Virus record (IMG/VR): IMGVR_UViG_2563366990_000006 | Reading direction: 5' to 3' (one strand) | Origin: a virus | Taxonomy: Duplodnaviria; Heunggongvirae; Uroviricota; Caudoviricetes | DNA length: 17,601 nt | Shown here: positions 15,001 through 17,601 of the stretch, in pieces | Layout: every line of letters starts with the position of its first letter | How positions within the stretch are numbered: the first letter of the stretch is position 1 | Position numbers: made by a program

Positions 15001-17601
15001 GTACAGGCCCGCCTTGCCCGTGGCAACGCGCCGATGGCGGAGGAGCTTGTACGTTCACAGATGGCTGAGGGTGATGCCGGTCCGACAGCACAGGAGTTAA
15101 CTGAGCGTCCGCGTCTGCCCGCCCCCGGCGATATTCATCCCGGACAGGGATATCCGTTACCGGGAGAGGTGGCGCGTACGCCGGATGAGAATCAGGCCGG
15201 ACGTGGTGGTCGTTTTACCACAACCGGTGAGGTTAAGGGCCAGAGTTTCCAGAAAGGACGTGCTCCGGCACCGGAAAACGCCGCTGGTCGCCAGGGGGAA
15301 ACACTCGAGGGTGAAATAGTTCGTCGTGGTCTGCCGTCACCGGATGCGCAGAACGCGACAGCACCGGTACGTGAAGGGCTACCGGCTCCTGACATTGCGC
15401 GTAATGTTCGTATGCCTCAGCCTGAATCACTTCCCCGCACTGTACGGGACTCACTGCCTGAGCTCGCACAGCAGGCAGAAGTACGCCGACAGGCCGGAGG
15501 AAATCGTGACATCCCGCAGCCTGAGACAATCGCACCTGAATCTGAAACAACTGTCTTTACTGACAGGGAATCTACCGTGCGCGGAGGTGAAGTCAGGGGC
15601 AAAAAAATTGAAGACTTTGGCGAGGAAATTAAAGGGGCAGCCAAACACCGTTATGCACAGCTTGCTGAAACACTGGGTAAAACGCTGGAAGACAGGGATT
15701 ATGCCACGCAGCCGCTGAGCAAACTGTTCCCGAAACCGGACTACGCAAAACTGGCGAACGAAGGTGCCGATGCTGACACTCTGGCAATGATAGCGCTGTA
15801 TCGTAGCGATATTCCGGCGAAGACGAAACACAATACGGCAGGCTGGGGGGAGAGCGTAAAAAAAGTACGACACAGTGTATCGGAAATGCTGAACGGAACG
15901 GTCAGCGCGAAACGCCTCGCAGAATGGATGGAAGGCAGAATGCCCTCCCGTTACGCGGATACCTGGCAACTGTTACGCACTCTGCCACCCTCACAGATGG
16001 ACAGGGCTTCTGCTTATCGGGTGGTATCGGGTGTGTATCAGGCGGCAGGAGGGAAGCGTTACGATCCGCCACAGAAACTTTATTCACTGCGCAATAAGGA
16101 CAATAAGGGGAGTAACCTCTTTTTCTCGGAAAGCAGGGATGAATTACTGGCAAAGGCGAAAGTCTGGTTTGCAGAGCAGGAGGAAAAATCACAGGCGAAA
16201 GGTGATGAAAAAACAGCACCGTCACCGGATGACAAAATCCGCTTTGACGTTTACCGGAATACCCGCAGTGGCGATATTTTTATCGCTTACGGTAAAAACA
16301 AAATGCGGGTGAGAGGTGGCTTTAAGTCAGCCAGTGATGCGCGTAAGTACATTGATTCACATCGTGATGAGCTTGTTCGTCATGTGAAGGATATGCGGGA
16401 GATTTCGCGTGAGGAGCAGCGTAACGCCACCAACCGCGACCGTACCGGACCAGAACGCCGTAAAGGGGATGTTTCACCGGAGCAGTTCAGTGATGCGTTT
16501 GGTTTCCGTGGTGTGCAGTTTGGTAACTACGTGGAAGGTCCGCGTCGTCAGGCTGATTTGAACCGGGCTTATGACTCGCTGCATGACCTTGCGGAAGTAC
16601 TGAATGTACCGACAAAAGCGCTTTCCCTGAACGGTCGTCTTGGCCTGGCATTTGGTGCCCGTGGTAAGGGTAAGGCGGCGGCACACTATGAGCCGGGTGA
16701 GGTGGCAATCAACCTGACAAAAGGTAACGGACCGGGTGCGCTGGCGCACGAATGGTTCCATTCTCTGGATAATTATTTTGGTCGTTATGACGTTTCCAAT
16801 GACGGGAAAATTACGTCAGGTGGCGACTTTATGACGGAAGCACAGCGTGTCAGGCGCATATTTAAAGACGGCAGGTATGTTGATGCTGAATATCCGGTAC
16901 GTCAGGAGGTTTACGACGCTTTTAAAGGTGTGATTCAGGCCATTAAAAACAGTGACATGCCGCGTCGTTCAGCGCTTCTTGATGAGGTGCGCTCAAAACC
17001 GTACTGGTCAACGGATGTTGAAATGGCGGCGCGTGCCTTTGAGCGTTATGTTCAGGATAAGGCGCGTATGGCTGGCGTGGAGAATGATTATCTGGTCAAT
17101 ATCCGTAAGGCACCTGAGCACAACACAGATAACACCTGGGCTTATCCGACGAATGCGGAACTGGATGGCGGTATTCGTGATGCATTCGATCACCTGTTCA
17201 GTACGCTGAAAACCCGTGAGACGGACAAGGGCGTTGCGTTTTATTCCCGTAAGGGCGTAACCCGCACACCTGAAGGCAATCTCATTTCGGATGTTAACCG
17301 TAGTGCGGCGGAAGCCAAAGGCAGCCCGGTCCCGCAGGTTGAAGCGGTTGCCCGTGGCGTGATGAGCGGCATTAAGGACAGTGACCTGAAGGTCCGTGTG
17401 GTGAAGTCACAGAAAGAGGCTGAAGCGCTGGCGGGCGAATCGTTCGATGGTTACGGCAGGGTGCACGCATTCTATCGTCCGGATAAACGAGAAATAGTCC
17501 TGGTGGCGGATAACATCCCTGACGGGCGGACCGTACGCGAGAAGCTGCGTCACGAGATTATCCACCATGCCATGGAGCATGTTGTCACGCCAGCGGAATA
17601 T

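Follow-up and report, generated by a model that had tools for sequence, protein, structure and literature searches.

A predicted second zincin domain in the giant polyvalent protein of Shiga toxin-converting phages

Background

Large polyvalent proteins, a class defined by its LPD domains, carry one to five metallopeptidase (MPTase) domains each, some of them with an HEXXXH active-site motif, and these domains have been proposed to process the polyprotein or to act as effectors (Iyer et al. 2017, PMC5512222). Here we analyse a protein of this class, a homologue of gp47 of phage phi24B, that is encoded in the last part of a 17,601-nucleotide stretch of DNA from a tailed virus (IMG/VR record IMGVR_UViG_2563366990_000006, Caudoviricetes; the whole stretch is hereafter called the window). 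We focus on an HEIIH motif close to the window end and on the region around it, which we predict to be the second of two zincin domains, MP1 and MP2, of the same polypeptide.

The giant gene is carried by the commonest Shiga toxin (Stx) phages, and its product is an abundant, structurally invisible virion protein. In a recent preprint on phi24B (2026), gp47 was found in purified virions by proteomics and was absent from the cryo-electron microscopy map, and its presence in virions without a place in the map led to the proposal that it is an internal ejection protein. The same preprint calls MuF_C a "metallopeptidase domain", which is the basis of its peptidoglycan-degradation idea, and leaves the two zincin modules unmentioned; MuF_C was classed by Iyer et al. 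(PMC5512222) as a BECR-fold, RNase-like domain. Current annotation of the giant protein consists of LPD5, LPD1, MuF_C and LPD38 only, neither MP1 nor MP2 being labelled.

Several further zincins serve as points of comparison. CLCA_X was defined as a family of phage and plasmid zincins in which an Asp follows the motif (Lenart et al. 2013, PMC3650047). The MPTase region of the phage N4 virion RNA polymerase (vRNAP) was linked to anthrax lethal factor (LF) by Iyer et al. via HHpred (PMC5512222). DPP III (family M49) has a hexapeptide motif, HEXXGH, and a second motif, E-E-x-x-A-E, about 50 residues downstream, and some of its members have reverted to a pentapeptide HExxH, such as HEISH and HELMH (PMC5805324, PMC9820243).

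The giant gene is known and widespread. Polyvalent proteins with multiple zincin MPTases, HEXXXH forms among them, were described in 2017, and the general picture drawn then is unchanged by our results. What is new is the definition of MP2 within the Stx-phage protein, the LF-like fold of MP2 in the structure model, and the reading of Pfam LPD1 as the probable C-terminal half of a CLCA_X zincin. New as well are a 330-cluster MP2 family for which neither Pfam nor NCBIfam has a model, and a change of motif from HExxxH to HExxH in the Stx clade.

Results and discussion

The HEIIH motif is part of an open giant gene

We put at roughly 0.8 the probability that the helix bearing HEIIH(H) is the active-site helix of a true second zincin domain (MP2, of gluzincin type) in the virion-packaged, 2795-aa Stx-prophage protein. 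The motif was noticed in a preliminary description of the window, which had correctly read the peptide GYGRVHAFYRPDKREIVLVADNIPDGRTVREKLRHEIIHHAMEHVVT; after a stop at 12844, its frame has no other as far as the window end. Codons CAC GAG ATT ATC CAC at window positions 17551-17565 (+ strand) encode HEIIH, with the first His being residue 1551 as counted from the ATG at 12901; a further His follows, so that the complete motif H1551-E-I-I-H1555-H1556 (17551..17568, + strand) reads both as HExxH and as HExxxH. It is thus whole and not, as had been stated, cut by the window end; only the module runs past that end, and about 57% of it (aa 1467-1567) lies inside the window, more than the mere start described before. 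The distance from the HEWFH motif of MP1 (residue 1283) is 268 residues, in agreement with the earlier figure of about 270. When the giant protein was shuffled, 0.039 HExxH motifs were expected, with a probability of about 0.001 of obtaining two or more; since two such motifs occur in only about one in a thousand shuffles, the observation is not an effect of composition.

The gene to which the motif belongs (giant polyvalent or ejection protein, N-terminal 1567 codons at 12901..17601, + strand) is supported by the open frame, a RefSeq coding sequence, phrog_616 and Pfam. Its frame is open from 12847, and the ATG at 12901 is the annotated start. Extension of the sequence, which the preliminary description had suggested as a check, revealed neither a stop nor a frameshift after HEIIH: in the identical prophage of E. 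coli 04-00955, the open reading frame runs 1,228 codons past the window to give 2795 aa. A gene of the same length was called in five of six further contigs with an identical upstream 420-aa protein, the sixth being interrupted by an IS21 insertion sequence (IS). The RefSeq entry for the protein, WP_001561692.1, is annotated "LPD38 domain-containing protein", and among PHROGs the match is to phrog_616 (unknown function), of which positions 1-1567 of 2793 are covered.

MP2 is a discrete and conserved domain

The whole MP2 module spans aa ~1467-1644, some 175-178 residues. Its part inside the window (aa 1467-1567, 17299..17601, + strand) comprises the active-site helix and, before it, an N-terminal helix and three beta strands, while the part beyond contributes three helices, including a glutamate helix with E1607 and E1614, and a conserved tyrosine, Y1596. 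Using HMMER with a 177-aa fragment (P0008, aa 1467-1644) as the query against 1.84 billion representatives, we obtained 330 clusters (50% identity) at E<=1e-3, of which 74 were found at E<=1e-10. The matches nearly always cover query positions ~4-176, and this uniform span identifies MP2 as a discrete domain. Another search for homologous proteins yielded just short fragments of little diversity, from E. coli and Salmonella.

Conservation is concentrated on the residues expected of a zincin active site. In 146 aligned copies, E1552 and H1555 are kept in all, H1551 and E1607 in 144 each, A1610 in 135, Y1596 in 134 and E1614 in 132, with A1613 kept in at least 90%. In a 54-sequence alignment whose members show 22-78% identity to the query, the sole invariant columns are the two His and the two Glu. 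These alignments were gathered by homology to the query, but the conservation is still informative, pairwise identity being just 25-45%. The glutamate-helix motif, defined in PMC7213743 as (E,H)xx(A,F,T,S,G), is likewise present, as E1607-F-L-A1610.

The spacing of the motif differs within the family. Of the 146 copies, 138 have HExxxH only (for instance LRHEVLAHHGL and LRHEILGHYGL) and six have HExxHH, the latter being the protein of the window and its nearest relatives in the Stx-phage clade; the remaining two carry Glu in place of the first His. The HEIIHH of the window fits both spacings, HExxH and HExxxH. Between H1551 and Y1567 the Stx clade is one residue shorter than the rest of the family, and pairing HHAM with HHGL, which gives the best residue matches, puts this deletion inside the motif. 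Judged by sequence, then, the MP2 family is of the HEXXXH kind, and the Stx clade would either have reverted to the canonical spacing or still use H1556. The two proteins in which Glu replaces the first His (P0155 and P0156, E-E-x-x-x-H) may be inactive or have a different ligand set.

MP2 can be compared with the described HEXXXH MPTases. The core, consisting of an N-terminal helix, three strands, a motif helix and a Glu helix, is the same, and so is the kind of host protein, as both are found in giant polyvalent proteins, in several copies per chain and interspersed among effector domains. HExxxH, the motif of the family, agrees with the way in which the text of Iyer et al. (PMC5512222), who distinguish 12 clades, characterizes the HEXXXH set. 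The Stx-phage clade differs from that set by the loss of one residue, giving HExxH-H. A similar toggling is known from DPP III, and MP2 mirrors it with HE(I/V)(L/I)(G/A)H ... A-E-E-x-x-A in most of the family and HEIIH in the Stx clade; we regard this as an analogy only.

Structure model and fold relatives of MP2

An alignment-based AF2 model of MP2 was obtained with a pLDDT of 90.8 and a pTM of 0.84. Its elements follow in the order helix, strand, helix, strand, strand, long motif helix, two inserted helices, the helix with E1607 and E1614, and a last helix. As modelled, MP2 is a zincin core of the kind described for polyvalent proteins (PMC5512222), with an E-x-x-A glutamate helix as in ArdC, and not the non-peptidase fold that would have spoken against the preliminary description. 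In BFVD, Foldseek found its relatives among phage proteins named "large polyvalent", "internal virion protein" and "virion RNA polymerase".

The modelled fold appears closest to the type represented by anthrax LF and the Pro-Pro endopeptidases (PPEPs) of family M34. Identity to LF/ATLF and PPEPs is 6-11%, no sequence-profile match connects them (no LF or PPEP chain was retrieved at E<=10 in a PDB profile search with MP2), and MP2 has no Pfam match to M34/ATLF, so that the likeness is one at fold level only. In M34 enzymes the catalytic Tyr precedes the glutamate by 7 residues, whereas Y1596 of MP2, at the end of the helix before the Glu helix, precedes E1607 by 11. MP2 differs further in the HExxxH motif of its family and in its intracellular or virion location, M34 enzymes being secreted toxins.

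Two other systems share features with MP2. The MPTase-PolyVal domain (PF18818), which is the C-terminal domain of ArdC (PDB 6SNA), is a gluzincin with HExxH and an E-x-x-A glutamate helix and is also found on polyvalent proteins of mobile elements. PF18818 matches neither the MP2 region at E<=10 nor any of the 54 aligned family members at E<=0.01, and in the two MP2 proteins that do contain it (P0142 and P0085), it matches a separate region. The C-terminal MPTase of the N4 vRNAP resembles MP2 in being a zincin in a giant podophage protein that is encapsidated and ejected, and N4-like vRNAP chains are among the BFVD structural matches, albeit weakly (E ~0.01-0.02) and with no sequence-level link found. 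The N4 protein is packaged unprocessed, and its MPTase region is needed for encapsidation (PMC5512222).

The first zincin is a CLCA_X-type domain that probably includes LPD1

MP1 (aa ~1181-1440, window 16441..17220, + strand) was identified by an NCBIfam match, by conservation and by an AF2 model. The NCBIfam model CLCA_X (NF041907) matches aa 1181-1436 with an E-value of 1.2e-43 and 149 bits, which is below the curated 260-bit subfamily cutoff and therefore indicates homology rather than equivalog membership; the same model has no match on MP2. The active-site motif of MP1, HEWFH-SLD, occupies aa 1283-1290 (window 16747-16770, + strand). Among 26 homologues there is no variation at H1262, H1283, E1284, H1287, D1290 or E1381, and 25 have E1374. 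MP1 fits the widespread phage-type MPTase of Iyer et al. (PMC5512222), in which a His stands at the strand-2 end and the motif is followed, three residues on, by an Asp. A profile of MP1 found only a sub-threshold match to a botulinum neurotoxin light chain (E 0.16).

AF2 modelled aa 1181-1445 as one compact domain (pLDDT 83.8, pTM 0.86) with HEWFH on a helix, in which the segment matched by Pfam LPD1 (aa 1360-1439, window 16978-17217, + strand) provides the helix carrying E1374 and E1381 (E1374-x-x-A...E1381). On the basis of this model, LPD1 is probably the C-terminal, glutamate-helix half of the CLCA_X zincin and not an independent domain.

MP1 is similar to MP2 in being a phage and plasmid zincin, here on the same polypeptide, and in its strand-strand-helix core: an hhalign comparison of the two aligned strand 2, strand 3 and the motif helix only (12% identity, probability 76%, E 2e-5). 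It is unlike MP2 in its HExxH-x-x-D motif, in the His at the end of strand 2 and in a Glu helix that is probably supplied by Pfam LPD1. The possibility that MP2 is a duplicate of MP1 was rejected in view of the low identity, the differing auxiliary residues and the independent distribution of the two. MP1 and MP2 have the core of the superfamily in common but are of different clades, in line with the two independent modules of which the preliminary description had spoken, and they were joined by domain shuffling.

Domain contexts of MP2

The contexts of MP2 were counted in 149 listed representatives of the 330 clusters. The proteins are large: of the listed ones, 112 reach 1500 aa or more and the median is 2372, and the matched proteins as a whole nearly all fall in the range of 1.5-6 kaa. 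MP1/LPD1 and MP2 occur together in 27, in each case in the order MP1/LPD1 then MP2 and mostly 16-75 residues apart, and 13 proteins contain two copies of MP2. MuF_C lies 92-125 residues downstream of MP2 in 15 representatives, and a C-terminal block containing LPD38 follows it in 19. Both P0142 and P0085 combine MP2 with ArdC-N and MPTase-PolyVal, P0085 having Toprim in addition; other fusion partners are a Zeta toxin (P0133), ART-PolyVal with LPD23 and LPD3 (P0132), LPD39 (P0074) and RadC (P0081).

MP2 is found in Vibrio podophages of ~60 kb, in a 2502-aa protein with the same synteny as in the Stx prophage, as well as in conjugative plasmids of Pseudomonas, Xanthomonas and Burkholderia, where it is fused to Zeta toxin and located near genes for primase, topoisomerase and methylase. 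MP1/LPD1 precedes MP2 even where the two are split into separate adjacent genes. This is the case in a metagenome contig (ERR13912362_16682, positions 5487-8723 of locus L012), in which a 739-aa LPD1 protein is followed by a stand-alone 240-aa MP2 protein; this context comes from one of three stand-alone MP2 proteins, the other two being on contigs of <2 kb. Beside the split cassette are an ArdA-type Antirestrict gene, a gene for an ankyrin-repeat protein and Csf3/RAMP CRISPR-associated genes, and the region is probably a plasmid anti-defence region.

These data show that MP2 has the traits of the polyvalent MPTases, namely occurrence in multidomain phage and conjugative proteins, interspersion with effector and LPD domains, and sometimes several copies per chain. 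We consider it highly probable that MP2 is a mobile module of this assemblage, probably of its HEXXXH subset, and distinct both from MP1 and from the ArdC-type MPTase-PolyVal. The preliminary description had called two zincins in one protein unusual and had suggested domain accretion. The former view does not hold for the polyvalent-protein class, for which one to five metallopeptidase domains per protein are documented (PMC5512222). The latter is well supported: MP2 occurs without MP1 in 122 of the listed representatives and has many fusion partners, which argues for accretion by shuffling.

Architecture of the giant protein

An N-terminal block (aa 1-460) of the giant protein is common to 42 of the collected proteins. 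It is separated from the cassette of LPD5 and MP1 by a long stretch with many Glu, Gln, Pro and Ala residues (aa ~430-900, window ~14200-15600) that has no Pfam domain match and is probably a disordered spacer. LPD5 (Pfam PF18799, E 4e-45) covers aa 1050-1199 (window 16048..16497, + strand), directly upstream of the first zincin. Pfam searching of the complete C-terminal region beyond the window, a further check that had been proposed, gave MuF_C (aa 1751-1845, positions 12552-12836 of locus L001) and LPD38 (aa 2478-2683), and no zincin family on MP2. Over aa 1440-1750 there is no covering sequence match in Pfam, NCBIfam or the PDB.

Weighing the evidence for MP2 and its possible roles

Several observations count against MP2 as an active zincin. 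Its C-terminal 77 residues (aa 1568-1644), with the glutamate helix, were read from the identical E. coli 04-00955 prophage. Pfam detected no zincin family for MP2, whether in the whole protein, in the isolated region (E<=10) or in 54 family members (E<=0.01); the Atp23 family Peptidase_M76 scored 12.2 bits (E 0.16), below its gathering cutoff of 25.2, over just 33 residues around the motif. No NCBIfam model matches MP2, the only one found being CLCA_X on MP1. PDB sequence searches, with the single sequence as well as with a profile, retrieved nothing relevant, and Foldseek comparison of the model with the PDB was not significant (best E 0.03). To these are added three published observations: protease activity was dispensable for the measured phenotype of the ArdC-type relative (PMC7213743), the N4 vRNAP is packaged without processing (PMC5512222), and the phi24B preprint reports no gp47 fragments. 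About half of the HExxH occurrences in databases are expected by chance (PMC3650047), and with no curated model over the region, HEIIH might be taken for such an occurrence in a helical linker with no metal site; this explanation is refuted by the conservation of MP2, the AF2 model and the fold comparison, and we give it hardly any credence.

If the MP2 domain is real, on which our appraisal of the roles below is conditional, general knowledge of the family would predict that H1551, H1555 (or H1556) and E1607 of the glutamate helix bind a metal, Zn2+ or another divalent ion, that E1552 is the general base by which water is activated, and that, as in M34 enzymes, the transition state may be stabilised by Y1596. 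Once packaged, or once ejected into the host, MP2 would then cut the giant polypeptide in cis or in trans and so free the neighbouring modules, here MuF_C/PBECR, which lies some 100 residues downstream, and the LPD38 block; host proteins may be cut as well. MP2 regularly sits between other modules, typically directly upstream of an effector-like domain, which agrees with the hypothesis of Iyer et al. (PMC5512222) that cutting in the capsid or following ejection frees modules whose targets differ; we tentatively rate self-processing or module release, a role read from sequence context, at a little under an even chance.

MP2 could instead be mainly an effector protease that is injected with the DNA and cleaves defence or repair factors of the host, as Iyer et al. 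listed among the possibilities (PMC5512222). This would suit its presence on phage and conjugative polyvalent proteins beside Zeta toxin, ART and ArdC-N and near antirestriction genes, and the closest solved folds, LF and the PPEPs, are secreted toxin proteases with specific host targets. We nevertheless hold it to be less likely than not, given that ArdC, the sole relative tested, gave neither a protease-dependent phenotype nor a cleaved target (PMC7213743) and that the constant position of MP2 between modules fits processing at least equally well. Still less probable is a mainly non-catalytic use of the fold in packaging, docking or unfolding and translocation, comparable to the N-terminal domain of LF (LF-N) or to the encapsidation region of the N4 vRNAP. 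The LF-N-type top fold matches, the N4 encapsidation data (PMC5512222) and the dispensable catalytic Glu of ArdC (PMC7213743) would all be compatible with it; on the other hand, the four catalytic and metal-binding residues of MP2 are kept in 144-146 of 146 diverged copies, whereas LF-N-like derivatives lose such residues, and MP2 is also present in plasmid proteins, which have to do with neither capsid nor portal. As to a metallopeptidase that degrades peptidoglycan and so opens the cell wall to a trans-periplasmic conduit, the role envisaged for gp47 in the phi24B preprint, gp47 is a proposed ejection protein that crosses the periplasm, and wall-degrading domains are sometimes found on polyvalent proteins (PMC5512222). 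The preprint, however, ties that role to MuF_C, a domain of RNase-like fold, and the fold neighbours of MP2 are protein endopeptidases and its fusion partners cytoplasmic, which makes this role very improbable. A small share, one in ten or so, is left for roles of other kinds.

Beyond self-processing as the favoured role, a more speculative thought, which we count as a long shot, is that MP1 and MP2 form a conserved two-protease cassette in which an LF-like MP2 would attach the ejection protein, unfolded and 300 kDa in size, to the portal or tail channel, start its translocation and cleave only on arrival in the host. The docking part is drawn by analogy with the LF N-terminal domain at the protective-antigen pore, and the cassette part from the fixed MP1/LPD1-MP2 order, which persists even when the two are split. 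If true, it would offer a mechanistic entry point to the way in which podophages pass giant proteins through a narrow channel. For the question whether gp47 processes itself during packaging or ejection, our findings name E1284, E1552 and E1607 as residues to mutate, and they suggest a new domain model for the databases.

The source prophage and the neighbourhood of the giant gene

Matches to phage records and E. coli genomes identify the window as the late region of a short-tailed Stx prophage of the 933W/phi24B type. The last 3 kb are matched at 80-99% identity by 186 phage records, all from Stx-converting or related Escherichia and Shigella phages, including phi24B, VT2-Sakai and the PA series, and by 425 of 5426 complete E. 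coli genomes. The prophage of E. coli 04-00955 is identical to the last 9,743 bases of the window (7859-17601).

The gene order in the late region is tail-tip fibre gene, lom, hok/gef, YadA-like adhesin gene, several small genes and the giant gene. The region is rich in non-structural cargo on both sides of the latter. Upstream are the gene for the Ail/Lom outer-membrane protein (lom, window 4480-5214), a Hok/Gef toxin gene (~7896-8036) and the gene for a YadA-like trimeric autotransporter adhesin (8388-9593), and downstream are genes for a second YadA-C protein and for an S6-family (SPATE) autotransporter peptidase (positions 16049-17293 and 18224 onward of L001).

An IS66-family element of 2441 bp (window 5418-7858) is inserted between lom and hok/gef. 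It contains an HTH_Tnp_1 reading frame (5488-5886), a TnpB_IS66 reading frame (5883-6233) and a DDE_Tnp_IS66 reading frame (6283-7821), and a 9-bp overlap of its flanks suggests a target-site duplication. The element is missing from the otherwise identical E. coli 04-00955 prophage, and a search for its junction in complete E. coli RefSeq genomes found no occurrence. IS insertion also affects the giant gene itself in one of the related contigs (L006, GCA_033688435.1): an IS21 element with istA and istB lies within the range of the giant gene (~11349-16158), which is uncalled there, and a second IS21 copy interrupts the upstream YadA-like gene, so that this contig is an example of decay in the prophage region that carries the giant gene.

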